A stretch of 64,000 bases of DNA from an uncultured Candidatus Saccharibacteria bacterium (GTDB lineage Bacteria; Patescibacteriota; Doudnabacteria; UBA920): assembly GCA_964512925.1 (NCBI GenBank), contig CAZEKH010000004.1, forward strand, positions 72,392 through 136,391. Direction: 5' to 3'. Shown piece by piece: positions 4,991 to 63,783 of this stretch. Within the stretch, counting starts at the first letter, position 1; each line of letters opens with the position of its first letter. The notes below the pieces were generated by a model that was not told where the DNA came from, did no database searches, and was given only the letters and a program-made list of their open reading frames with translations. Position numbers and translations under genes: made by a program.

Positions 4991-5354
4991 TTTCATTTCC
5001 TTCCAGATACCATTTATTTCCATTCGATGAATGCACTAAAGAAAATACCCCTGTGCGTGTATTCGAATTTGTTTGGGTATTTCCATATTGATAAGTGATG
5101 GTATATTCTGTTTCAATAATATGTTCTTCGCCTTGTTGTGAGGGTCTTAAATATTCTTCAACTTTACACGGATATTGTTCGCAAAATTCCTTAGGACCCC
5201 TTTGCTGATTAGCATGCGCTGATATTGCAGTTTGTACTATGTTCGGTAAGCGTTCTAAAAATTTTTTCAGTTTTATTTCTTGTACTTTTCCACTGATTAA
5301 ATCCGGGGTTTTTGGACCCTCAGGTGTAACAAAGCCTAAAAGTTTTTTTAACAT
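4980..5354 (-). CDS. Hypothetical protein (124 aa)
   Basis: Intact ORF convergent with recX; the two 3' ends overlap by 11 nt. No recognisable domain. Confidence 0.4.
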   Translation of the reverse strand: MLKKLLGFVTPEGPKTPDLISGKVQEIKLKKFLERLPNIVQTAISAHANQQRGPKEFCEQYPCKVEEYLRPSQQGEEHIIETEYTITYQYGNTQTNSNTRTGVFSLVHSSNGNKWYLEGNEIKV

Positions 5355-5377: not shown

Positions 5378-6325
5378 TTATAAATTCATTTCCCTAAGCC
5401 TTTTTACCCTCTCTTCTATGGGAGGATGGGTGTTAAAGAGGGAGGTAAACCAACTTCTTCCGGAGGAAGAAGTTGTCCTGAGCGCAGCCGAAGGACCCCT
5501 TAAATCGTCCTCGTGAAAAGGATTAACTATATACAAGTGAGCAGTAGCTTTGTTGGCAGCCTCTAGCGGTTCGTGGTCAGAACTGATTTTTTCTAAAGCC
5601 CGCGCAAGCCCTTCCGGGTAGCGTGTTAGGAGCGCCCCTGAGGCGTCTGCAAAAAATTCACGTTTTCTGGAGACTGCTAGTTTTATGAGAGTAGCAATTA
5701 TCGGGGAGAGGATGGCGAGTACAAGTCCCGCGATCATCAAAACCAATTTTAACTGACCGCCTCCCTCGCGGTCGTCGGATTTGCGTCCGCCAAAAAAACT
5801 TGCGCGAAGCATAAAGTCCGCAAGCAGGGTTACAGTGCCGACTAAAACTACGACCAAAGTCATAACACGGATGTCGTAGTTGCCTATGTGGGAGAGTTCG
5901 TGGGCTGTTACGCCTTCCAGTTCTACTTTGTCTAACTTTTGTAAAATCCCGGTTGTATAGCACACAACCGCATGCTTGGGGTCGCGTCCCGTGGCAAAAG
6001 CATTGGGCGCTGTGTCTTCTATTATATAAATTTTCGGTGTTGGAATGCCTGCTGTGATGCAAAGATTTTCTACTATGCGGTAAAGCTCCTGGTTAGACTG
6101 TCTGTCAACTTCCTTAGCCCCTGACAAGGCTAAGGTAATAGAATCGGAATAGTAGTAGGAAATGAGGGATGAAAAAACCGAAAAACCCACAGCGATATAA
6201 AGTATCTGCGGATTTCCATAAACCTGTGAAAATACAAAACCCAAAAGTGCAATAACTGCCAAAAAGCTGAATATGAGTATCCAGCTTTCGGTTTTGTTTT
6301 TATTTATATGGTCGTAAGTCAACAT
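5378..6325 (-). CDS. htpX: Zinc metalloprotease HtpX (peptidase M48)
   Basis: N-terminal TM segments, HELSH zinc motif and a THPPIEERV C-terminal tail. Confidence 0.85.
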   Translation of the reverse strand: MLTYDHINKNKTESWILIFSFLAVIALLGFVFSQVYGNPQILYIAVGFSVFSSLISYYYSDSITLALSGAKEVDRQSNQELYRIVENLCITAGIPTPKIYIIEDTAPNAFATGRDPKHAVVCYTTGILQKLDKVELEGVTAHELSHIGNYDIRVMTLVVVLVGTVTLLADFMLRASFFGGRKSDDREGGGQLKLVLMIAGLVLAILSPIIATLIKLAVSRKREFFADASGALLTRYPEGLARALEKISSDHEPLEAANKATAHLYIVNPFHEDDLRGPSAALRTTSSSGRSWFTSLFNTHPPIEERVKRLREMNL

Positions 6326-10753: not shown

Positions 10754-12241
10754 ATGTCAGATTCTTTTGAATTTAAAACTTTAACAGAACTGCGGAATTT
10801 GCTGGATTCCAAGTCCATATCTTCTTTGGAATTGACCAAATATTTTTTGTCGCGCATAAAAAATTTGGATAAAGATTTAAATTCTTTTGTGACTGTTTCA
10901 GAAGAAGAGGCTTTGAAAAATGCCAAGGATGCGGACGAGTTTATAAATTCGCCTGGTGAAAATCCTTTTTTATGCGGTATTCCTTATGCTTCAAAAGATT
11001 TATTTTTGACCAAAGGCGTGCGCACCACTGCTTCTTCAAAAATATTGGATAACTATATACCGCCTTATGATGGAACTGTGACAAAAAAACTAAAAGATCA
11101 AAAGTCAGTTTTGCTGGGTAAAACCAATTTAGACGAATTTGCCCACGGCTCTTCTACTGAAACTTCAGCTTATGGGGTGTCAAAAAATCCTTGGGATAAA
11201 AATCGCATACCGGGAGGTTCTTCGGGTGGTTCTACTTCAGCTGTGGGAGGCGGACTTGCTCCTTGGGCAACAGCTACGGAAACAGGCGGCAGTATCCGTC
11301 AGCCGGCTTCTTTGTGCGGGCTTTCTGGCTGGAAGCCTACCTACGGGCGTGTTTCAAGATTTGGAGTCATAGCTATGGGTAGTTCTTTGGACTGTCCTGG
11401 CGCGGTTGCGCATACAGTTGAGGATTTGGCTCATTTGGCTGAAATAATGTCAGGACTGGACCCGAAGGATTCCACTACCGGACCGGTTGAGGTACCGCGC
11501 TTTTCCAAATCTTTAAACCAAAACATTAAAGGAAAAAAATTGGGTTTGCCCAAACAATATTTTGTAGATGGTATGGAGGAGGGTGTCAAGATAAGGGTTT
11601 TGGAAGCGGTTGATGAGCTTAAAAAACTTGGCGCTGAAATTGTTGAAGTTGACCTGCCGAACACCAGATACGGGTCTTTAGTTTATGCTATTATTTGTCC
11701 TTCGGAAGTTTCTTCAAATCTTGCGCGGTTTGATGGCATCCGCTATGGCCATAGCTCCAAGGAAGCGAAAAATCTTTTGGAAACCTATGAGAAATCCCGC
11801 GGAGAAGGTTTGGGTTTGGAGGCAAAGCGGAGGGTTTTAACAGGGACATATGTATTATCTGCCGGCTACTATGATGCGTATTATAAAAAAGCTCAAAAGG
11901 TCAGGGGGCTTATACTGCACGAATTTCAGGAAATTTTTAAGTCAGTTGACGCCCTGGTCTGCCCTTCTTCGCCAAATGTTGCGCCGAAAATCGGCACTGC
12001 CAAACAAAACCCGCTTTTTGGCTATATTGCCGACCAGCTGAACATCCCGTCCTCGCTTGCCGGCCTTCCTGCTTTGTCTGTTCCTTGCGGATTTTCTTCC
12101 CCGTCTGACGATGCTTCAGTACAGCTGCCTGTCGGCCTCCAGATCATCGGTCCTCAATGGGGAGAGCAGACAGTATTTGATATAGGTTATGCTTTTCAAA
12201 AAGTTACTGATTGGCATACCAAACATTCAACTCTTGCATAA
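10754..12241 (+). CDS. gatA: Glu/Asp-tRNA amidotransferase subunit A (amidase signature)
   Basis: Amidase signature GGSSGGS...TETGGSIRQPA. Confidence 0.9.
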   Translation: MSDSFEFKTLTELRNLLDSKSISSLELTKYFLSRIKNLDKDLNSFVTVSEEEALKNAKDADEFINSPGENPFLCGIPYASKDLFLTKGVRTTASSKILDNYIPPYDGTVTKKLKDQKSVLLGKTNLDEFAHGSSTETSAYGVSKNPWDKNRIPGGSSGGSTSAVGGGLAPWATATETGGSIRQPASLCGLSGWKPTYGRVSRFGVIAMGSSLDCPGAVAHTVEDLAHLAEIMSGLDPKDSTTGPVEVPRFSKSLNQNIKGKKLGLPKQYFVDGMEEGVKIRVLEAVDELKKLGAEIVEVDLPNTRYGSLVYAIICPSEVSSNLARFDGIRYGHSSKEAKNLLETYEKSRGEGLGLEAKRRVLTGTYVLSAGYYDAYYKKAQKVRGLILHEFQEIFKSVDALVCPSSPNVAPKIGTAKQNPLFGYIADQLNIPSSLAGLPALSVPCGFSSPSDDASVQLPVGLQIIGPQWGEQTVFDIGYAFQKVTDWHTKHSTLA

Positions 12242-12279
12242 CTAGAGAATTTTTAATTTGCAATTTTAATGAATTTTCA

Positions 12280-13830
12280 ATGAAAGAATTTACAGCTTCA
12301 ACCGAATACAAACCCGTGATTGGGTTTGAGATACATATACAGCTTGCTACCAAATCTAAGATGTTTGGCGTGGCGCACAACAACCCGGACCAGACTGAGC
12401 CGAATATGGATATAGACGAAGTTAACACGGCGCAGCCCGGGACTTTGCCTGTGGCAAACAAAGAAGCTATAAGGATGACTACAATGGTGGGGCTTGCTTT
12501 AAACTGTCAGATAGATGAGTTTAGCAAGTTTGACAGAAAACACTATTTTTACCCCGACCTGCCGAAAGGTTATCAGATTTCTCAGTATGATCAACCCATT
12601 GCGAAAAACGGGTATTTGGACATAGAGGTGAATGGAAAAATAAAGAGGATTAACATCACCAGGGGGCACCTTGAAGAAGATGCCGGGAAAAACATTCACC
12701 CAGAAGGATTGCCTTACTCTTTGGTTGATTACAACAGGGCTGGGTCAGCGCTTTTGGAAATTGTGACTGAACCGGAGATAGAAAGCGGACAGGAAGCTTA
12801 TGCGTTTTTAAGTGAGTTAAAAAATATCGTACGCTACTTGGGCGTGTCTTCCGCAGATATGGAAAAAGGAATTTTAAGGTGTGAGCCGAGCATTTCTGTG
12901 CGAAAACCTGGGGAAACCACTCTGCCAAAATATAAAGTGGAAGTAAAAAATATCAACTCTTTTCGCTTTGCCCAGGCTGCGATTGACTACGAAATCGCGC
13001 GGCAGACCGAGATTTTAAAAGACGGCGGAACGCCCAAGCAGGTTACTATGGGCTGGAACGAAAAGCTGGGAGTGACGGTTGAGCAGAGAAGCAAAGAAGA
13101 AGCAAACGACTACCGATATTTTCCGGAGCCGGATTTGCCGGTTTTACAATTTACCCAAGAGTATTTAGATGAGCTTAAAAGAAAAATGCCGGAACTGCCT
13201 GCTCAGAAAAGGCAAAGATTTTTAGAGGAATACGGTCTGCCTAAAGCGGATGTGGAAAATTTGGTTAATTGGAAAGAATTGGCGAATTATTTTGAGGAAG
13301 TGGTGAGTGAAATAGACGAATGGATCATTGTGGAAGGTCAATCGTTCGACCTCTCCCGCCCTGCGGGCACCCTCCCCACGCCTGGGGAGGGAAAAAGTGT
13401 TATTGCTTCGCAACTCTATAAAAGCGCTGTCAATTGGTGTTTGCAGGATTTTTCCGCGCTTTTAAACCAAAATCTGTGGAATCCTTCGGATTCTTCTGTA
13501 ACCCCTGAAAATTTTGCTGAGCTTTTAGTAATGATCCAGAAAGGAAAAATTTCAACTTCTGCAGCCAAACAGGTGTTTAAAGTGATGTTTGAAAAAGGCG
13601 GAGAGCCGGACAATATAGTTTCCGACCTTGGCCTGGAGCAGGTTTCAGATACAGGAGCTATTGAATCCGCTTTGGATAAAGTCATTGCCGAAAACCAAAA
13701 AGCTGTTACGGACTACAGGGCAGGCCAACAAAAGTCTTTTGGTTTTTTGGTCGGCCAGGCAATGAAAGAGCTGAAAGGTAAAGGCAACCCGCAGATTATA
13801 AACGAAATTTTAAAGAAAAAACTTTCTTAG
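12280..13830 (+). CDS. gatB: Glu/Asp-tRNA amidotransferase subunit B
   Basis: ATG at 12280 (MKEFTAS...) overlaps the gatA end. GatB core plus YqeY-like tail. It carries a GC-rich in-frame insert (see 13350-13391). Confidence 0.9.
   Translation: MKEFTASTEYKPVIGFEIHIQLATKSKMFGVAHNNPDQTEPNMDIDEVNTAQPGTLPVANKEAIRMTTMVGLALNCQIDEFSKFDRKHYFYPDLPKGYQISQYDQPIAKNGYLDIEVNGKIKRINITRGHLEEDAGKNIHPEGLPYSLVDYNRAGSALLEIVTEPEIESGQEAYAFLSELKNIVRYLGVSSADMEKGILRCEPSISVRKPGETTLPKYKVEVKNINSFRFAQAAIDYEIARQTEILKDGGTPKQVTMGWNEKLGVTVEQRSKEEANDYRYFPEPDLPVLQFTQEYLDELKRKMPELPAQKRQRFLEEYGLPKADVENLVNWKELANYFEEVVSEIDEWIIVEGQSFDLSRPAGTLPTPGEGKSVIASQLYKSAVNWCLQDFSALLNQNLWNPSDSSVTPENFAELLVMIQKGKISTSAAKQVFKVMFEKGGEPDNIVSDLGLEQVSDTGAIESALDKVIAENQKAVTDYRAGQQKSFGFLVGQAMKELKGKGNPQIINEILKKKLS
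13350..13391. repeat. GC-rich palindromic element inserted in-frame in gatB (hairpins CCCGC-CCT-GCGGG and CCCTCCCC-ACGCCT-GGGGAGGG)
   Basis: It translates to SRPAGTLPTPGEG. The second hairpin is the C-for-T variant of the CCCTCTCC-N6-GGAGAGGG core seen elsewhere in the window. Confidence 0.6.
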
Positions 13831-15273: not shown

Positions 15274-16305
15274 TTAATGAATAAATTTTTTTATTAATTT
15301 TTCCGCTGTTTTTATGTTTGGTTTGATCCAGTGGATTTCCTGATTTTTTTTCCACCAGGTAAGCTGGCGTTTGGAGTAGTGTTTGATTGCGTAGGATAGT
15401 TCGGTTTGCGCGATATTCCACACCCTTCTAACCTCCCGCCTCAAGGGGGAGGAAATGTTTATATCGGGGTATTGTTGTAAAAATTTTGCAATGTACCGGT
15501 ATTCCAGACCGAATTGTTCTAATCTTTTCCAAGATAGCGCGGAACGGCGCGGAATTTTACGCGGAACGGCGCGGAAACCTTTATGCAGATTTTGTACTTC
15601 TTGGATCATTCCATCTTTTATTCTTTGTTTCAATCTTTTGTCGATTTTTTCATACAAAGTTTTTTGCGGCAAGATTGTGCCGATCCAGAGCGTATCATAT
15701 TTGCTGAGTACTGATGACTGAGCACTGATGACTGGGACAGGTTTACCTGTTGTGGCGATTATTTCTAAAGCGCGTATTAGTCTTCGTCTGTTATATCTGT
15801 CTATGGTTTTTGCGCGCTCTGGGTCCAAGCGAACTATTCGTGCGAATAGTTCCTCAGTGGATAGTTTTTCTAGTTCTTTGCGGAGCTTCGGGTTGGGTTT
15901 TACTTCGGGTATGCTTTGGTTAAAAACCACGGCGTCTATATAGTGCATACTCCCGCCGCAAAGTATTGGCAGTTTTCCGCGTTTTAAAATATCAGTTATA
16001 GCTTTGTCCGCGGCTTTTTTAAACCGCGAAACAGAATATTGGCGTTTTGGCGAGACAAAGTCTATGAGGTGGTGGGGGATGGATTTATAGTAAAATTGAA
16101 AATTTAATGATTTAAAGATTAAAGATTTTGGATTTTGAACCTTTTTCCAAACGCCAGGAACTTTTCCTGTGCCTAGGTTTAGGCCGCGGTAAATCTGCCG
16201 GCTATCGCAGGAGATTATTTCGCCGTTAAATTTTTTTGCTAAGGCTACTGCCAACTCGCTTTTACCTGAAGCTGTGGGGCCGACAATAATAATTATCTTA
16301 TTCAT
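15274..16305 (-). CDS. miaA: tRNA dimethylallyltransferase MiaA
   Basis: P-loop GPTASGKS and DSRQIYRGL; a C-terminal extension is present. Confidence 0.9.
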   Translation of the reverse strand: MNKIIIIVGPTASGKSELAVALAKKFNGEIISCDSRQIYRGLNLGTGKVPGVWKKVQNPKSLIFKSLNFQFYYKSIPHHLIDFVSPKRQYSVSRFKKAADKAITDILKRGKLPILCGGSMHYIDAVVFNQSIPEVKPNPKLRKELEKLSTEELFARIVRLDPERAKTIDRYNRRRLIRALEIIATTGKPVPVISAQSSVLSKYDTLWIGTILPQKTLYEKIDKRLKQRIKDGMIQEVQNLHKGFRAVPRKIPRRSALSWKRLEQFGLEYRYIAKFLQQYPDINISSPLRREVRRVWNIAQTELSYAIKHYSKRQLTWWKKNQEIHWIKPNIKTAEKLIKKFIH

Positions 16306-42189: not shown

Positions 42190-42212
42190 ATAATAAAGTT
42201 TATGTTGCTTTA

Positions 42213-42330
42213 CCCCCTCTCCTATATAGGAGAGGGGTGGGGTGAGGTTTGAGCGATGGTAATAAGACATAAGTTTAATCAATTTTTTAACATTGTTGCC
42301 TCACCCTGCCCTCTCCGAGTTTGGAGAGGG
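42213..42330. mobile_element. MITE-like composite: two copies of the GC-rich palindromic element in inverted orientation flanking a 51-bp AT-rich core
   Basis: Left copy CCCCTCTCC-TATATA-GGAGAGGGG-TGGGGTGAGG. Right copy CCTCACCCTG-CCCTCTCC-GAGTT-TGGAGAGGG. Confidence 0.55.
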
Positions 42331-42384
42331 AATTGATAAAAAAATATTTTTTTATAACACATTAACTGTTAACAACTTTATAAA

Positions 42385-47841: not shown

Positions 47842-48807
47842 CTAATTTTTACAGGCCGTGTCTAAATCTATGTGGATGTGGTCATATTTACGGGCATCAG
47901 TACCTGGGTTAACCTGAAGCCCTAACGAGCTGGCCTTTGCTTCAGCTGCCTTGCCTGCCGGGCTGGATCTGAAAGCTTGTGAACCGTCGGCAAAATCTAC
48001 TGCGCAAAAACGGTAATGATAAGAATTTTTAGCATGTTGGCCGGAGGATACGGAAGAGATTTGTATTTTGCCTTTAGCTGATCCGGCCTTGCATATTTCC
48101 ACCACAGCGGCAAAAATTTCCGGCTGGATACGCGCCGCTTCTTTTTGAAACCTGGCTGCGTCCTGCCAGCCGCAGCCGGCTTGGGTTATGAGCGCTGGGT
48201 CATTTGACCCTAAAGCGTTGAAAATTTGTCCAGAGGAATTTTTCACTCCAGTAACGTTTCCGCTAGAATCTATAACTTGTGTCCAGTCATCCCACCCCGT
48301 TGTATCCAAAGCCACGCTCGGCAGCTGTAGTTTTGGGAACTTCACTAAATCTGGGTTAATGGTTTTAAGGAGTAAATAACCACCCATCAGTAGCACAAGT
48401 CCGGTTAAGCTGGTAGCCAGCATATCTTTGGCTTTGGAAACAGATTCATTATTGCCCTCGGCTGACATATATAAGTATCCGGCTATAACTATGAAAAAGA
48501 CTGAGATGGTGGCCCCAACAATGATGGCAAGGCGGTAAAGCTTGTTGATACAGCTGTATAGATCTCCTTGCCCTGAGACTTTGACTGTGCTTCCGTTAAC
48601 TATGTTTGCGTTTCCTGAAATATTGCTGTTATCCGAAGGCGCGCAGAGATACTTTTTTATCTGATCTGAAACTCCTGTATAGCTGGAGCCTTTTTGGGTG
48701 TAGGGGTTTTGGGTTTGGGCAAAAACTAAATTTACATTTGCCAGTAAAATAGCAAAGCTGAAGAAAAGAAAAAAGACCAGTTTGATTTTTTGTTTTGAGA
48801 ATATCAT
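47842..48807 (-). CDS. Paralogue A: signal peptide plus two-helix membrane hairpin (TrbC/VirB2-pilin-like) fused to a C-terminal M15-type zinc peptidase (VanY/L-Ala-D-Glu peptidase-like)
   Basis: N-terminal 170 aa nearly identical to paralogue B. C-terminal zinc ligands in SYHYRFCAVDF and DHIHIDL. Confidence 0.6.
   Translation of the reverse strand: MIFSKQKIKLVFFLFFSFAILLANVNLVFAQTQNPYTQKGSSYTGVSDQIKKYLCAPSDNSNISGNANIVNGSTVKVSGQGDLYSCINKLYRLAIIVGATISVFFIVIAGYLYMSAEGNNESVSKAKDMLATSLTGLVLLMGGYLLLKTINPDLVKFPKLQLPSVALDTTGWDDWTQVIDSSGNVTGVKNSSGQIFNALGSNDPALITQAGCGWQDAARFQKEAARIQPEIFAAVVEICKAGSAKGKIQISSVSSGQHAKNSYHYRFCAVDFADGSQAFRSSPAGKAAEAKASSLGLQVNPGTDARKYDHIHIDLDTACKN
48300..48745. repeat. Direct repeat copy 1 (about 450 bp, roughly 90% identical to 49690-50130)
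   Basis: Aligned by eye: ggttttaaggagtaaataaccacccatca...gtgtaggggtttt. Confidence 0.8.
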
Positions 48808-49242: not shown

Positions 49243-50211
49243 TTAGGCTCGAAATTTGTTAAGCCACGATGCAACAGCATCAACACCCTTATCCCAGGTG
49301 CCAAAATTTTGTTTGTTGCCGGCATCGTCATTTCCAACGTTGCCTGGGTTGAAGGTTTGCGCTCCAAGCCCTTTGGTTCCTAGCGAACTGTCGGTTTGCA
49401 TTATGGCAACCATAAGTTTTGCATCTACATTATATTTTGCCGCCGAAGCAAGAATCATTGAGCCGGTTAAGGGAGTTTTTGGAGCTGCTTTTTTTAAATA
49501 TGAATCTATGGTTTGGGGCGATGAAAAATCAATATTTTTCAAATCGTTATATATTTGGGTAACCAAAGCCTCATGATTAGAGGCAGTGGCATAAGGACCA
49601 ATATTATAGCCAGCTAAAATATGCGTCTGGGTTGAATTTCCCGCGCCTCCCCCTCCTCGCGTTGAGGTAAAAGAATAAGTATTCCACTCCGCAGCATCCA
49701 AAGCCACGCTTGGCAGTCTCAGTGTTGGGAATTTTACCAAATCCGGGTTAATGGTTTTAAGGAGTAAATAACCACCCATCAAAAGCACAAGTCCGGTTAA
49801 ACTGGTTGTTAATATATCTTTGGCTTTAGACACAGATTCGTTATTACCCTCGGCTGACATATACAAGTACCCGGCTATAACGATAAAAAAGACTGAGATG
49901 GTAGCTCCGACTATGATGGCAAAGCGGTAAAGTTTGTTGATACAGCTATACAAATCTCCTTGTCCTGAGATTTTGACCGTGCTTCCGTTAACTATATTTG
50001 CATCTCCTGAGATATTGTTGTTATCCGAAGGCGCGCAAAGAAACTTTTTTATTTGATCTGAAACTCCTGTGTAGCTTGAACCTTTTTGGGTGTAGGGGTT
50101 TTGACCAGCTGCGGGCAAAGCGTCAGTTTGGGCAAAGACATTGGAAACATTGCCAAAAAATATTCCAAACAGAATATAACAAAAGAAAAAAATTTGAAAT
50201 TGTTTTTTCAT
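49243..50211 (-). CDS. Paralogue B: the same signal peptide and TrbC/VirB2-like hairpin, fused to a C-terminal GH73/FlgJ-like (or lytic-transglycosylase-like) peptidoglycan glycosidase domain
   Basis: C-terminal AAKYNVDAKLMVAIMQTDSSLG...NPGNVGN resembles the glucosaminidase motif AQAILESGWG...NNLFG, with D at the acid position. Confidence 0.55.
   Translation of the reverse strand: MKKQFQIFFFCYILFGIFFGNVSNVFAQTDALPAAGQNPYTQKGSSYTGVSDQIKKFLCAPSDNNNISGDANIVNGSTVKISGQGDLYSCINKLYRFAIIVGATISVFFIVIAGYLYMSAEGNNESVSKAKDILTTSLTGLVLLMGGYLLLKTINPDLVKFPTLRLPSVALDAAEWNTYSFTSTRGGGGAGNSTQTHILAGYNIGPYATASNHEALVTQIYNDLKNIDFSSPQTIDSYLKKAAPKTPLTGSMILASAAKYNVDAKLMVAIMQTDSSLGTKGLGAQTFNPGNVGNDDAGNKQNFGTWDKGVDAVASWLNKFRA
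49690..50130. repeat. Direct repeat copy 2
   Basis: See copy 1. Confidence 0.8.
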
Positions 50212-53202: not shown

Positions 53203-54150
53203 TCAAACCTGGGAAGATTTAATTTTGTATTTAATCAGTTCGGATACAAGGCCCCAAGTTGCGTGGAAAATCCTTTTATATCTTTTGGGCTGGGTTAGAA
53301 GTCTCCATAACCATTCCAGACCCATTTGAGCTAGTATTTTTGGAGGCTTTGGGTATATGCCGGCTAAATAATCAAAAGTTCCGCCAACGCCCATAACCAA
53401 ATTGATGCTTGAAAGTTTTGGCAAATTTTCCAAAATCCACTTCTCCTGGCGGATAGGTCCAAACGCAACAAATAAAATATCAGGGTTTGCGATGTTTATA
53501 TCATCAATAATTGACACATCCTCGGGATTTTTGTTTGAATATTGAACCCTGATTTTTTGATCTGCTGATCTACTGATCAACTGTTCCGCTGCCAATTTCG
53601 GAGTTTCCCCAAATCCTCCAAGTAAATAAATTGACCAGTTATTTTTTTCCGCAAGCTCTGCAATGTCAGAAACTAGTTCTCGTCCCGGGATTCTTTCTAT
53701 TTGCGTACCAAGCCCCCTCCCCTGCCCTCCCCCGCCTGTGGCGGGAGATGGAGAAAAAAAAGGAAAGGCAAATTTGATTAGCACAGCTAACGCTTGAAAG
53801 TAGGCTTTAAAAATTATTTTCCAGTGGTTAACATTTTCTAGCTTGCCTTTGAACTTATTTTTTTCCCCTCTCCCCGAATCAGATGGGGGGGGAGAGTAGG
53901 GTGGGGGTGTGGGTGGTATTTCCAAATATGTTTTTGCCCACAAAATCCCAATACCGTCAGCTAGGGCAATGTCAGCTTTGTTTAGCATTTCTAAAATTTG
54001 TTTGTCGCGTAAAGCAGCATACAAAAATTCTGAGTACAAAGTCGTTACCCAGGTTTTTTGTTTGTTTCTAATATTTTTTTCTAATTCTTTCAGTAATTCA
54101 GGTTTAGAAAAGTTGTTAATCTTAAGTCCCGCAACATCAATTTTTTGCAT
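53203..54150 (-). CDS. WecB/TagA/CpsF family glycosyltransferase carrying an in-frame insertion of about 70 aa
   Basis: Conserved ADGIGILWA and VMGVGGTFDY blocks. The insert is PTPPPYSPPPSDSGRG...GGGGQGRGLG. Confidence 0.7.
   Translation of the reverse strand: MQKIDVAGLKINNFSKPELLKELEKNIRNKQKTWVTTLYSEFLYAALRDKQILEMLNKADIALADGIGILWAKTYLEIPPTPPPYSPPPSDSGRGEKNKFKGKLENVNHWKIIFKAYFQALAVLIKFAFPFFSPSPATGGGGQGRGLGTQIERIPGRELVSDIAELAEKNNWSIYLLGGFGETPKLAAEQLISRSADQKIRVQYSNKNPEDVSIIDDINIANPDILFVAFGPIRQEKWILENLPKLSSINLVMGVGGTFDYLAGIYPKPPKILAQMGLEWLWRLLTQPKRYKRIFHATWGLVSELIKYKIKSSQV
53709..53917. mobile_element. MITE-like insertion of about 210 bp inside the tagA-like gene: C/G-rich inverted termini around an AT-rich core, read through in frame
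   Basis: The right end contains CTCTCCCC-N12-GGGGAGAG (family core). The left end contains CCCGCC-TGT-GGCGGG. Confidence 0.55.
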
Positions 54151-54226: not shown

Positions 54227-54529
54227 ATGGAATTAATAGGTAAAATAGCTTCCAAAATAAAAAAATCAGAAAAGCCCAGGAAAAACCCGCATCTCCACTC
54301 CCCCACCCATCTGCTTGCTGAAGAGCTAACTTTGAAGCTGAATGATAAAAAACATTTTGCTTTTTACCTGAAAATGGCTGTACTTTATGACCATAACTGG
54401 CTTAGGAAGCTGGCTGGTGAGATTTTGGAAAACCGAAATGTGCAAACACCTGGTAAACTATTTGCGTACCTTATTAAAAAAGCCAACTTGGAAAAGAAAG
54501 CTGAGGCAAATATTGAAAAGGCAAAATAA
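54227..54529 (+). CDS. Hypothetical protein (101 aa)
   Basis: ATG at 54227 directly after TATAAT (54215-54220). The longer ORF-track version overlaps tagA antisense. Confidence 0.4.
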   Translation: MELIGKIASKIKKSEKPRKNPHLHSPTHLLAEELTLKLNDKKHFAFYLKMAVLYDHNWLRKLAGEILENRNVQTPGKLFAYLIKKANLEKKAEANIEKAK

Positions 54530-57570: not shown

Positions 57571-57584
57571 GTTTTTGATTTGCT

Positions 57585-57650
57585 AAAGACTAATCACTAA
57601 AGTCTAAATTCTAAGCACTAAAGACTAACCACTAAACTTTAAAGACTATT
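57585..57650. repeat. Degenerate tandem repeats of CACTAAAGNCTAA
   Basis: cactaaagtctaaattctaagcactaaagactaaccactaaac. Confidence 0.6.
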
Positions 57651-62065: not shown

Positions 62066-63229
62066 TTAAAAATATTTTTTATCTTTTAACTTCTCAGGCA
62101 GAAAGCTGGCGGATTGGTCATCGGAAGAACCATATCCCAGATCTTTCATCAGTTGGGTCGGGGCATTCCTTATATGAAGGGGTACGGGAAGATTGCTGAA
62201 ATTTTTGACGTCAGCCTGGGCTGCGCGAAGAGCGTCATAAGCAGAGCGGTCTTTTTTGCAGTTTGCCAGGTAAGCGGCGCCGTGGCTGAGGTTTATGGCG
62301 CATTCGGGGTAGCCGATTTTTTCACAGGCCGCAAAAACCGCAGTAGCAACCACCAAAGCAGTAGGCTGTGCCAGTCCGATGTCTTCTGAAGCAAATATTA
62401 CCATTCTTCTGGCGATAAATAAAGGGTCTTCGCCGGATTCCACCATTCTCGTCAGATAGTAGATTGCGGCATCTGTTTGTCCCGCGCGCATAGATTTGAT
62501 GAAAGCAGAAATAGTGTTGTAATGTTCTTCTCCGGCTTTGTCGTATCGCAAAGTTTTTGACTGTAAGGTTTGTTTGAGATTTTCAAGAGTGACAGACCCG
62601 TACAGGCTGATACAATTTTCCAACATTGACAAAACTTGCCTGGCATCCCCTCCTGACATTGACACTAGCCACTGTTTTTCACCCTCTCCGATATCGGAGA
62701 GGGTTGGGGTGAGGTTACGGATAGCATTATTTATTATTTCTCCAATTTCTTCCTCATTTAACTCATTTAGCACAAAAACCCTGCAGCGGGACAAAAGCGC
62801 GGGGATGACTTCAAAGCTCGGGTTTTCCGTGGTTGCGCCGATCGAAGTCAGCTCGCCAGACTCTACATAAGGCAAAAGGAAATCCTGCTGAGCTTTGTTA
62901 AAACGGTGGATTTCGTCCAGAAAAAGAATCTTGGGTGTATTGGACAGATAAGACTCATTGGACTTATAAGATTTATTTTCAATTATTTTCCTGATATCTT
63001 CTTTCCCAGCGCTGACTGCGGAGAGTTCAAAAAATTCAGCATTCAGTGCTTTTGCATATATCCTCGCCAGGGTGGTTTTGCCCACGCCCGGCGGTCCCCA
63101 CAGCAAAAAACTAAACAAATGTTTTTGTTCTATGGCTTTTCTTATGGGTCCGTCCTCCCCTACCAAATGCTTTTGACCAATATAATCTTCAAGGGTTTGG
63201 GGTCTGAGTTGTTGCGCTAGTGGCTGCAT
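62066..63229 (-). CDS. rarA: Replication-associated recombination protein RarA/MgsA (AAA+)
   Basis: Walker A GPPGVGKTT, Walker B LFLDEIH and a GGDAR arginine finger. Contains the in-frame palindromic element. Confidence 0.85.
   Translation of the reverse strand: MQPLAQQLRPQTLEDYIGQKHLVGEDGPIRKAIEQKHLFSFLLWGPPGVGKTTLARIYAKALNAEFFELSAVSAGKEDIRKIIENKSYKSNESYLSNTPKILFLDEIHRFNKAQQDFLLPYVESGELTSIGATTENPSFEVIPALLSRCRVFVLNELNEEEIGEIINNAIRNLTPTLSDIGEGEKQWLVSMSGGDARQVLSMLENCISLYGSVTLENLKQTLQSKTLRYDKAGEEHYNTISAFIKSMRAGQTDAAIYYLTRMVESGEDPLFIARRMVIFASEDIGLAQPTALVVATAVFAACEKIGYPECAINLSHGAAYLANCKKDRSAYDALRAAQADVKNFSNLPVPLHIRNAPTQLMKDLGYGSSDDQSASFLPEKLKDKKYF
62681..62714. repeat. Palindromic element ACCCTCTCC-GATATC-GGAGAGGGT-TGGGGTGAGG in-frame inside rarA
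   Basis: Encodes TPTLSDIGEG just upstream of the GGDAR motif; same family as 42213-42247. Confidence 0.65.
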
Positions 63230-63679: not shown

Positions 63680-63747
63680 ATGTTGATTTGTTTCTTGTCT
63701 TTTTAAGACAGTTAGTTGATGTTAAATTTTTTTAGAAGTTGGCATTT

Positions 63748-63771
63748 TACCCTCTCCTCGCCAGGAGAGGG
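63748..63771. repeat. Intergenic copy of the palindromic element ACCCTCTCC-TCGCCA-GGAGAGGGT
   Basis: Perfect 9-bp stem with a 6-nt loop. Confidence 0.65.
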
Positions 63772-63783
63772 TAAAAATTAAAG

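Follow-up and report, generated by a model that had tools for sequence, protein, structure and literature searches.

Two GC-rich palindromic units, probably degenerate relatives of the BoxC/PIT/TM repeat family, translated within a TagA glycosyltransferase gene of a Patescibacteria-type genome

The 64,000-nucleotide (nt) stretch of contig CAZEKH010000004.1 analyzed here (the window, to which all coordinates refer unless another locus is named) carries on its minus strand, at 53203–54150, a gene of the WecG/TagA glycosyltransferase family that is open throughout. Its product of 315 amino acids (aa), window TagA, matches the Pfam family PF03808 (Glyco_tran_WecG) at 9.5e-39 and 133 bits, against a cut-off of 27.4. 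AlphaFold2 (AF2) predicts a structure for it with a mean predicted local distance difference test score (pLDDT) of 90.1 and a predicted template modeling score (pTM) of 0.87, and in Foldseek this model matches the TagA/TarA crystal structures 7mpk and 5wb4 with target-normalised TM scores of 0.88–0.89. Inside the gene lie two short GC-rich palindromic inserts, translated in frame. We think it probable that they are two degenerate units related to the BoxC/PIT/TM repeat family, which joined the TagA reading frame in opposite orientation at the linkers of a clade-specific helix (aa ~99–128).

A protein search returned 631 relatives, the best of which are Patescibacteria or "Candidatus Doudnabacteria" proteins of 44–59% identity. 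Because the window and the relatives hold the gene order def / small open reading frame (ORF) / TagA / gltX in common, we treat the relatives as orthologues. No closer relative than 59% identity in the alignment (57% by BLASTP) was found among 5.8 billion proteins, and the protein cluster of window TagA has a single member. Two other runs, in their Logan assemblies, encode the identical 315-aa protein (with 100% identity over 2399 nt in one contig), and since the sequence is the same in three data sets it is not an assembly artefact. In most relatives a NUDIX domain is fused C-terminally (TagA-NUDIX, ~440 aa); window TagA ends at 315 aa, gltX starts 58 nt beyond, and the NUDIX part is absent at the locus. 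Between TagA and def, the small ORF contains a C-rich tract, cccgcatctccactcccccacccatctgc, at 54288–54316, which encodes PRKNPHLHSPTH; it has no evident complementary arm and may be the remnant of a family unit.

Our orthologue comparison covers 120 aligned sequences including window TagA, i.e. 119 Patescibacteria orthologues. All 23 alignment columns that are invariant across the 120 are retained in the window protein. D65 is invariant and T37 nearly so (at least 90%) in this set, both are invariant within a 16-sequence alignment, and both are kept here; we take their equivalents, Thr37 and Asp65 in the TagA structural literature, to have a catalytic role. Y39, S40, E41, G66 and E236 are among the residues conserved alongside them across the 120 sequences, and these too are present in window TagA. 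A preliminary description of this DNA had proposed that the enzyme either tolerates a large loop or is being inactivated. The gene is intact, and we see no sign of inactivation. Given the open frame, the retained invariant residues, an AF2 core (outside the inserts and the helix) with pLDDT above 90 and low-confidence coils predicted at the inserts, the enzyme most likely accommodates the GC-rich units as loops. That the gene is a decaying pseudogene, still open by chance, seems to us most improbable. The missing NUDIX fusion partner could be read that way, as could the native helix, which is more diverged here than in other orthologues (it scores only 10.8 bits; see below). Yet all 315 codons remain open in an AT-rich genome where stops arise easily, the 23 invariant columns are kept, the Pfam and profile scores are strong, the AF2 core exceeds a pLDDT of 90, and the same sequence recurs in three data sets.

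The inserts stand out first by composition. GC content is 0.60–0.63 at 53680–53759 and 53860–53919 and 0.30–0.33 between them, compared with 0.397 for the window overall and mostly 30–45% for the rest of the TagA gene, so that the C/G-rich termini around an AT-rich middle noted at the outset are borne out. Relative to the solved TagA 7mpk, window residues 1–77 correspond to 1–77 and residues 152–295 to 82–226, which leaves ~74 residues unmatched. This difference had been described as an interruption of about 70 residues, encoded by a ~210-bp insertion at 53709–53917. The extra in-frame, GC-rich palindromic DNA is indeed there, but not all of the block is insertion, for a segment of ~37 aa is already present at this position in the orthologues and the centre of the block is recognizably that segment (HMMER and MAFFT, 10.8 bits).

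Insert 1 (site 1; 53842–53913, minus strand, the GC-rich part being 53863–53913) encodes aa 80–103, PTPPPYSPPPSDSGRGEKNKFKGK. Read on the plus strand, it consists of a T-run, CCCCTCTCCCC, a loop of 9–13 nt, GGGGAGAG, TA and a G-rich tail. The hairpin previously pointed out at the right terminus is present, with arms CTCTCCCC (53868–53875) and GGGGAGAG (53889–53896), at its single match where 100 shuffles lead one to expect none. The tail, GGGTGGGGGTGTGGGTGG at 53899–53916 on the same strand, forms a G-rich third block that mirrors the purine arm and is G-quadruplex-prone. All 15 orthologues of alignment A1 have a gap opposite insert 1 in MAFFT, HMMER leaves aa 82–102 unaligned, and AF2 places a coil at aa 78–98, with block means of pLDDT 62–67 over residues 81–100. 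The hairpin folds as RNA at -18.1 kcal/mol (z=-1.4).

Insert 2 (site 2; 53707–53754, minus strand) encodes aa 133–148, SPSPATGGGGQGRGLG, and is again a hairpin with a G-tail, reading TCTCCCGCC-ACA-GGCGGGGGA-GGGC-AGGGGAGGG on the coding strand. The CCCGCC-TGT-GGCGGG noted earlier at the left end lies at 53731–53745 and extends on the plus strand to TCCCCCGCC / TGT / GGCGGGAGA at 53728–53748. This insert appears as a 12-residue insertion in HMMER and a 13-aa gap in MAFFT, and AF2 gives a coil at aa 133–155 with block means of pLDDT 51–57 over residues 131–150, falling below 50 at 139–147. Its RNA fold is -22.5 kcal/mol (z=-1.3), and it contains a 10-nt tandem duplication, CCCTCCCCTG/CCCTCCCCCG.

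On the coding strand, insert 1 runs C-rich tail, hairpin, A-run, and insert 2 runs T-run, hairpin, G-rich tail; because this block order is reversed, the two are mutually inverted. The messenger RNA (mRNA) would carry a strong G-run, GGCGGGGGAGGGCAGGGGAGGGGG, at site 2, and two PPP runs are encoded at site 1. We considered a terminator or promoter role and rejected it: there is no terminator-like site at the TagA inserts (family units in the C-tail orientation are followed by A-runs, not T-runs), and promoter-like matches are only modestly above shuffles (8, against a mean of 3.5 with an sd of 2.0). We read the extra DNA as two separate units of ~50–70 bp, at two sites that flank a native helix, and both are predicted to form disordered, low-confidence coils.

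The AT-rich centre, which had been taken for the core of an inserted element, is the clade's own helix-coding segment. Canonical TagA lacks this segment of ~37 aa, which is conserved in the 119 Patescibacteria orthologues (consensus IPLTAK-YWxKILQAxWQxKYSLAAIxFxPxWIKSxxP-EKIxG). Measured between the anchors G66 and V160, the spacing is exactly 59 aa in 85 of the 120 aligned sequences and 95 aa in the window. MAFFT places window LENVNHWKIIFKAYFQALAVLIKFAFPFF on the orthologues' native segment, and a HMMER profile built from orthologues only agrees, with window aa 103–138 on that segment and two gaps left over. HMMER accordingly splits window TagA into aa 1–81 and aa 103–313, with an extra 12-residue insertion near aa 139–151. 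The part between the inserts, aa 104–126 (LENVNHWKIIFKAYFQALAVLIK; 53773–53841, minus strand), scores 10.8 bits against the native-segment hidden Markov model, a value reached by 1 of 1000 and by 3 of 5000 composition-preserving shuffles and by none of 1443 natural 36-mers taken from the window's other long ORFs (maximum 5.5 bits). The TagA frame is the sole open one of six across the centre, and the sole one that matches the native profile. We considered an inversion of the segment between the units and rejected it, since stops abound in the other five frames, none of which scores above 1.2 bits on the native profile.

A structural model had been called for to see whether the additional residues form a surface loop. 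The inserts are indeed predicted coils; the middle is no loop but a confident helix (aa 99–128, pLDDT 76–93) between them. Similarly, the thought that relatives might conserve the whole stretch applies to the middle, a clade-specific segment, and not to the GC-rich flanks, which are extra in the window. The helix is hydrophobic or amphipathic and would be a peripheral appendage, perhaps membrane-facing, on tethers of variable length. If so, the permissiveness of such tethers, and not targeting, would explain why they are insertion hot spots.

Which repeats are these? The pattern CCTCTCC-N-GGAGAGG occurs four times in the window where none is expected, and the earlier expectation that the hairpin family would be found elsewhere held true for the arms (4 + 1 matches in the window, 0 expected) and not for the whole block, as 53700–53925 matches only itself in the 64-kb window (blastn-short). 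Beyond the window, the 19-mer pattern GGAGAGGGNNGGGGTGAGG (17 fixed bases) is found at at least 120 loci of a species-representative genome collection; the hosts among the matches listed include Proteobacteria, Cyanobacteria, Verrucomicrobia, Planctomycetes, Bacteroidetes, Chloroflexi, Acidobacteria and Actinobacteria, and in nearly all of these matches a complementary CCCTCTCCC arm precedes it. As judged by sequence, the pattern is the published TMECO/BoxC/PIT intrastrand-triplex motif, an identity that had escaped the preliminary description. Bachellier (for BoxC) and Hoyne and Maher (for PIT) are said, in papers that cite them, to have worked on it earlier. Our source for the intrastrand-triplex motif is Holder et al. 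(2015; PMC4666352), who give the E. coli consensus CCCTCKCCC-loop-GGGAGAGGG-YY-GGGGTGAGGG; the motif forms a triplex in vitro, no triplex was found in vivo, tests gave no promoter or terminator activity, and no mobility gene is associated with it or nearby (PMC4666352). The motif marks variable loci and is tied to local genome variability (PMC4666352), and all 23 E. coli copies are intergenic, "always located intergenically" (PMC4666352; PMC5100583). Kaplan et al. (2016; PMC5100583) treat it as a G-quadruplex/hairpin switch.

The repeats in the window share the general design of this family: three blocks, namely a C/T block, a short loop, its G/A complement, another short loop and a G-rich mirror, the arm sequences being CCCTCTCC / GGAGAGGG / GGGGTGAGG and canonical copies lying at 62680–62714 and 42214–42332 of the window. 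For a stricter comparison, we followed the published ITxF search rule (stem of 6–15 bp with at most one mismatch if longer than 7, loops of 1–6 nt; PMC4666352), in which the third block is a G-rich mirror of the purine block via G·G, A·A or T·A, and we also built an nhmmer profile from 132 motif instances in other phyla. At both TagA sites the first two blocks are a pyrimidine block and its Watson-Crick complement, within the hairpin rule. Site 1 has an 8-bp stem, CTCTCCCC/GGGGAGAG, with no Watson-Crick mismatch and a third block, GGGTGGGG, with one Hoogsteen mismatch; nhmmer reports it at E=0.009, for the hairpin part only. Site 2 has a 9-bp stem, TCTCCCGCC/GGCGGGGGA, with one Watson-Crick mismatch, and loops of 3 and 4 nt that lie within the rule. 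These results suggest that the TagA units are degenerate relatives of BoxC/PIT/TM rather than canonical members, site 1 being at best a degenerate or expanded copy.

Window TagA is not the only orthologue with additions here. Thirteen others have an enlarged region with insertions at the same two positions, and the inserted peptides (which include PPFSKGGAGGG, PSPFGGG, PPFSKGRGRGG, SPSFSKEGAGG, APSPSEERAGER and PSSAKASEGS) are unrelated in sequence between lineages. Among the seven of these 13 whose DNA we examined (loci L123–L129), six bear units of the triplex type, at one site or both; the remaining one, L129, has a GC-rich hairpin of another kind. Units of the form C-block/loop/G-block/G-block are found in L123, L124, L126, L127 and L128, that of L128 being near-canonical (CCCCTCTCC-TTCT-GAGGAGAGGG-CC-GGGGAGAGG), and inverted pairs lie inside site 2 in L126 and L127. 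The architecture of L123 is that of the window: a single unit per site, in inverted orientation, with a clearly native helix between them. L125 has hairpins plus CCCGCCGCAGGCGGGGGAGG at site 2, where it shares a 20-mer (CCCGCCNCAGGCGGGGGAGG), one wildcard position apart, with window site 2 even though the proteins are only 55% identical.

Other repeats occur at site 2 as well. In L124 (4259–5767, orthologue P0074), a different long palindromic repeat is found there, coding ...SSGQALRSINDEESLHFPKDSSDALRMTPE..., which means that several repeat families use the same loop. In L129, one hairpin type is found twice, once at TagA site 2 and once in the adjoining small conserved ORF upstream (5199–5228 and 5694–5721; PSSFAKASED / PSSAKASEGS). 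In the window and in L123–L129, both TagA hot spots adjoin GAAA(A)ATTCC-like native sequence (E-I-P and E-K-I-P codons), and family units in many phyla are typically bounded by a T/A run. These surroundings may reflect a preferred target or simply chance.

Such recurrence at the same two sites in independent lineages might also be expected if the inserts were selected functional modules, acting either as tethers that tune the reach of the helix to the membrane or as nucleic-acid structures (hairpin, triplex, G-quadruplex, PPP stalling) with a role in regulating TagA translation or in promoting local recombination. The G-run and the two PPP runs mentioned above, and the published link of the motif to local genome variability (PMC4666352), are in keeping with this idea, which we nonetheless consider very unlikely. 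The standard 59-aa spacing of 85 of the 120 sequences, with larger inserts in only 13 other orthologues, indicates that the inserts are not needed, and their sequences are unrelated between lineages. Furthermore, the E. coli motif showed neither promoter or terminator activity nor an in vivo triplex (PMC4666352), and the permissiveness of the linkers explains the recurrence equally.

The window contains further copies. The canonical motif at 62680–62714 on the plus strand, CCCTCTCC gatatc GGAGAGGG ttg GGGTGAGG, is translated in frame as NLTPTLSDIGEGE in RarA/MgsA (62066–63229, minus strand); all 8 of its 8 triads are perfect, and nhmmer detects it at E=5e-6 (62678–62714). The copy occupies a variable loop in the AAA+ lid region, and the two closest homologues have 7 aa fewer in this loop. 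An intergenic inverted pair of canonical motifs at 42214–42332 (42214–42247, plus; 42298–42332, minus) is arranged like E. coli BoxC, with perfect triads (10/10 and 8/8) and nhmmer E-values of 7e-6 (42211–42247) and 0.2 (42298–42332). At 63745–63776 (plus), an intergenic hairpin with the same arms, ACCCTCTCCT cgcc AGGAGAGGGT, folds at -22 kcal/mol (z=-5.6) and has no third block in the triad test. A degenerate, weak C-arm/G-arm hairpin with a G-rich tail at 15418–15452 is translated as SSPLRREVRRV near the C-terminal part of MiaA (15274–16305) and may be a decayed family copy.

The GatB gene (12211–13830) holds a degenerate family copy at 13343–13393 (plus), in frame as DLSRPAGTLPTPGEGK, within a ~35-aa stretch that is extra relative to GatB structures in the PDB. 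In-frame copies in the window are thus those of TagA (two), GatB, RarA and, weakly, MiaA. The GatB loop (EIDEW...LIKQAANW, around 13300–13420) offers a second series of the kind seen in TagA: in a set of 120 orthologues (69–78% BLASTP identity, 72–81% in alignment A3), it is 32 aa long in 64 and 34–59 aa in 52, compared with 51 aa in the window. It is a striking insertion hot spot, filled by unrelated peptides of the palindrome type (GSLDSSRSAGLARDD, GADIIRPQEGKMVSSPTDR, PPSLSKEGVGGV) or by poly-Asn runs, and one loop peptide, NPSQPPLMQKGGD, matches the TagA site-2 insert of orthologue P0043.

Translated copies also occur in other phyla. Of 136 exact-motif matches there, 47 are in frames that stay open for 60 codons or more in both directions. 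All four loci that we tested with Pfam (L005, L048, L054, L073) are inside real genes, three of them with domains on both sides: in HsdR the SWI2/SNF2 domain spans the motif, in LigA the motif splits the adenylation domain, in Mfd it lies between the UvrB-interaction and D3 domains, and in an MmeI-like enzyme Pfam domains are found downstream only. In-frame copies are therefore not peculiar to the window genome, and the "always intergenic" rule of E. coli is not general. The canonical motif has a stop in only one of its six frames (GG AGA GGG TTG GGG TGA), so survival in frame is easy; the others, read by eye, give peptides such as GEGWGE, ERVGVR, LTPTLS and SPQPSP, which recur in the translated copies found here. 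Two further repeats in the window are a 300-nt direct repeat (48289–48588 / 49681–49980, 86% identity, 1392 nt apart) and a short tandem array of CTAAAGACTAA-like units at 57583–57648 with a spacing of 14–21 nt.

The poly-Asn runs in the GatB loop of relatives show that permissive loops do grow by slippage, which raises an explanation that needs no imported unit: the GC-rich flanks in TagA would have grown locally, by replication slippage or quasi-palindrome template switching, as a Pro/Gly low-complexity expansion. The 10-nt duplication inside insert 2 fits this, as does the failure of the site-2 unit on strict family rules. We regard it as quite unlikely, however, for the three-block architecture and the arms (CTCTCCCC, CTCCCGCC) recur in other window copies and in orthologues, the 20-mer is common to L125 at the same site at only 55% protein identity, and 60–63% GC is hard to derive from the native sequence of a gene that is mostly 30–45% GC.

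Several points weigh against reading the inserts as two separate BoxC/PIT/TM-related units. The first loop at site 1 is 13 nt (11 with a 9-bp stem), compared with 1–6 in the rule, and at site 2 the third block, AGGGGAGGG, adds two Hoogsteen mismatches to the Watson-Crick one, which is beyond the rule. The nhmmer profile is strong only for the canonical window copies and weak for the TagA units, site 2 not being significant (E=8). The local TagA hairpins are no more stable than shuffled sequences of equally C/G-rich composition (z ~-1.4), which is unexceptional because any mix of C-runs and G-runs folds. With the best relative at 59% identity (57% by BLASTP), there is no empty-site allele to fix the exact boundaries, and the function of the protein is itself assigned from sequence and model. 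Finally, collinearity of the inverted arms reaches ~65 nt and takes in an 8-mer, AAAGGCAA/TTGCCTTT, on the far side of the A/T runs; the complete 221 nt fold into a single hairpin (-82.3 kcal/mol, z=-3.9), as would be expected of one composite element. The long hairpin is mostly expected under either model, because any two inverted family units behave so. The collinear 8-mer, to which a rough estimate gives a chance of a few per cent, may reflect quasi-palindrome extension.

The composite element in question would be ~210 bp long and resemble a miniature inverted-repeat transposable element (MITE), with GC-rich terminal inverted repeats and an AT-rich core of its own, inserted in frame. Besides the collinear arms (53707–53772 and 53843–53914) and their one long hairpin, it would account for the GC-rich inverted ends, which were correctly recognized from the start (53707–53736 and 53885–53914, 30 nt, 73% complementary). 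Inverted pairs are, moreover, a common unit of the motif (PMC4666352; also in the window and the orthologues), and the sole Rfam near-matches, at 53700–53926, are long-hairpin miRNA precursor models; these are far below threshold and reflect the long hairpin, so that we rejected a known RNA family as an explanation. Against a MITE-like element, the core resembles the orthologues' native segment to a significant degree, and the lengths fit 59 + 36 = 95 aa (native 37 plus two inserts) rather than 59 + 70, so by this arithmetic the element must also have replaced nearly all of the native segment. There is no other copy of the core in the 64-kb window and no convincing target-site duplication in the flanks that we read (only a trivial TATTT on both sides, not adjoining the arms), and L123 provides a precedent for separate units at each site around a native helix. 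A single MITE-like insertion is, in our judgment, unlikely.

Comparison with known systems places these units within a wider set of palindromic repeats. Fungal mitochondrial mobile GC clusters are GC-rich palindromes in an AT-rich genome and sometimes lie in frame in genes; being organellar and unrelated in sequence, they offer only an analogy. Repetitive extragenic palindromic (REP) sequences and the related REPINs are 20–40-bp palindromes, often in inverted doublets that can fold as one hairpin; they lie outside genes and are mobilized by RAYT transposases, with whose gene they are associated. The TagA pair and the 42.2-kb pair are likewise inverted doublets able to fold as one long hairpin, but the third G-rich block is not a REP feature and no mobility gene is reported for the triplex motif (PMC4666352). 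As in BoxC/PIT/TM, inverted pairs are frequent, no transposase is known for the motif, and there is a tie to local sequence change. The differences from BoxC/PIT/TM as known in E. coli are that the E. coli copies are intergenic whereas the window copies are translated in frame, that the TagA units are degenerate, one by its long first loop and the other by 3 mismatches, and that the host is an AT-rich, small-genome organism of the Patescibacteria type, a group that we did not find covered in PMC4666352 or PMC5100583.

A behavioral parallel is provided by the Rickettsia palindromic elements (RPEs) of Ogata et al. (2000), which, according to a review of MITEs (PMC10969869), are palindromic repeats lying in frame in unrelated conserved genes. 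The likeness is that both are palindromic, in frame and translated where the fold tolerates them, in a host with a reduced genome, and the window units behave as RPE-like repeats in this sense, being dispersed palindromes in frame at permissive positions of conserved genes. RPEs are ~100–150 bp long, carry family-specific conserved peptides and are confined to one genus, whereas the window units are ~50–70 bp, C/G-rich in an AT-rich genome, without a conserved peptide beyond a Pro/Ser- or Gly/Arg-rich composition, and belong to a motif family that spans many phyla. The differing size and composition make sequence homology between the window units and RPE families unlikely.

We therefore return to two BoxC/PIT/TM-related units as our preferred reading of TagA, and can sketch how they might have come to lie there. 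The units would arrive by whatever copy mechanism serves the motif family, which may be template switching or repair at hairpin- or triplex-forming DNA, or an enzyme. Selection would then keep those insertions that are stop-free, a multiple of three in length and placed in loops that can take a Pro/Ser-rich (C strand) or Gly/Arg-rich (G strand) peptide without harm. The enzyme would stay functional, with the inserts as passive flexible linkers. Side effects at the nucleic-acid level are conceivable, whether through a long-range hairpin over the block, through the strong G-quadruplex-type run that site 2 gives the mRNA, or through the PPP runs of site 1. In addition to permissiveness there may be a targeting component, given the GAAA(A)ATTCC-like context and the A/T-run bounds.

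Both the BoxC/PIT/TM repeat family and in-frame palindromic repeats such as the Rickettsia RPEs are known. Triplex-type units that are translated, and that recur at the permissive loops of conserved proteins in Patescibacteria as well as other phyla, appear to be undescribed: in the literature outside subscription journals we found nothing relevant on in-frame palindromic repeats in the candidate phyla radiation (CPR)/Patescibacteria or on triplex motifs in coding regions. The TagA gene itself is ordinary and intact, and its enzyme has two naturally permissive sites. The finding of BoxC/PIT/TM in a Patescibacteria-type genome, and inside reading frames, differs from the exclusively intergenic copies of the E. 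coli reports (PMC4666352; PMC5100583). For annotation, it means that PSP...GEG.GEG-type peptides inside conserved proteins should be recognized as repeat-derived.

A broader reading, which we offer tentatively and as something short of an even bet, is that BoxC/PIT/TM is a cross-phylum, actively spreading element that repeatedly lands in essential genes, persists in frame where loops are permissive, and serves quite generally to supply disordered linkers and variation in protein length, as is especially visible in small AT-rich Patescibacteria genomes. The examples that we would offer are the two TagA sites, the GatB loop and RarA here, and HsdR, LigA and Mfd in other phyla. In TagA and GatB, the same loops have been filled independently in many orthologues, a natural series of gain events from which target preference and copying mechanism may be inferable; if the element does spread in this way, recurrent filled and empty orthologous sites would be the material for working out how the motif is copied. 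Loop occupancy of this kind shows one way in which disordered Pro/Ser- or Gly/Arg-rich loops arise in conserved proteins.

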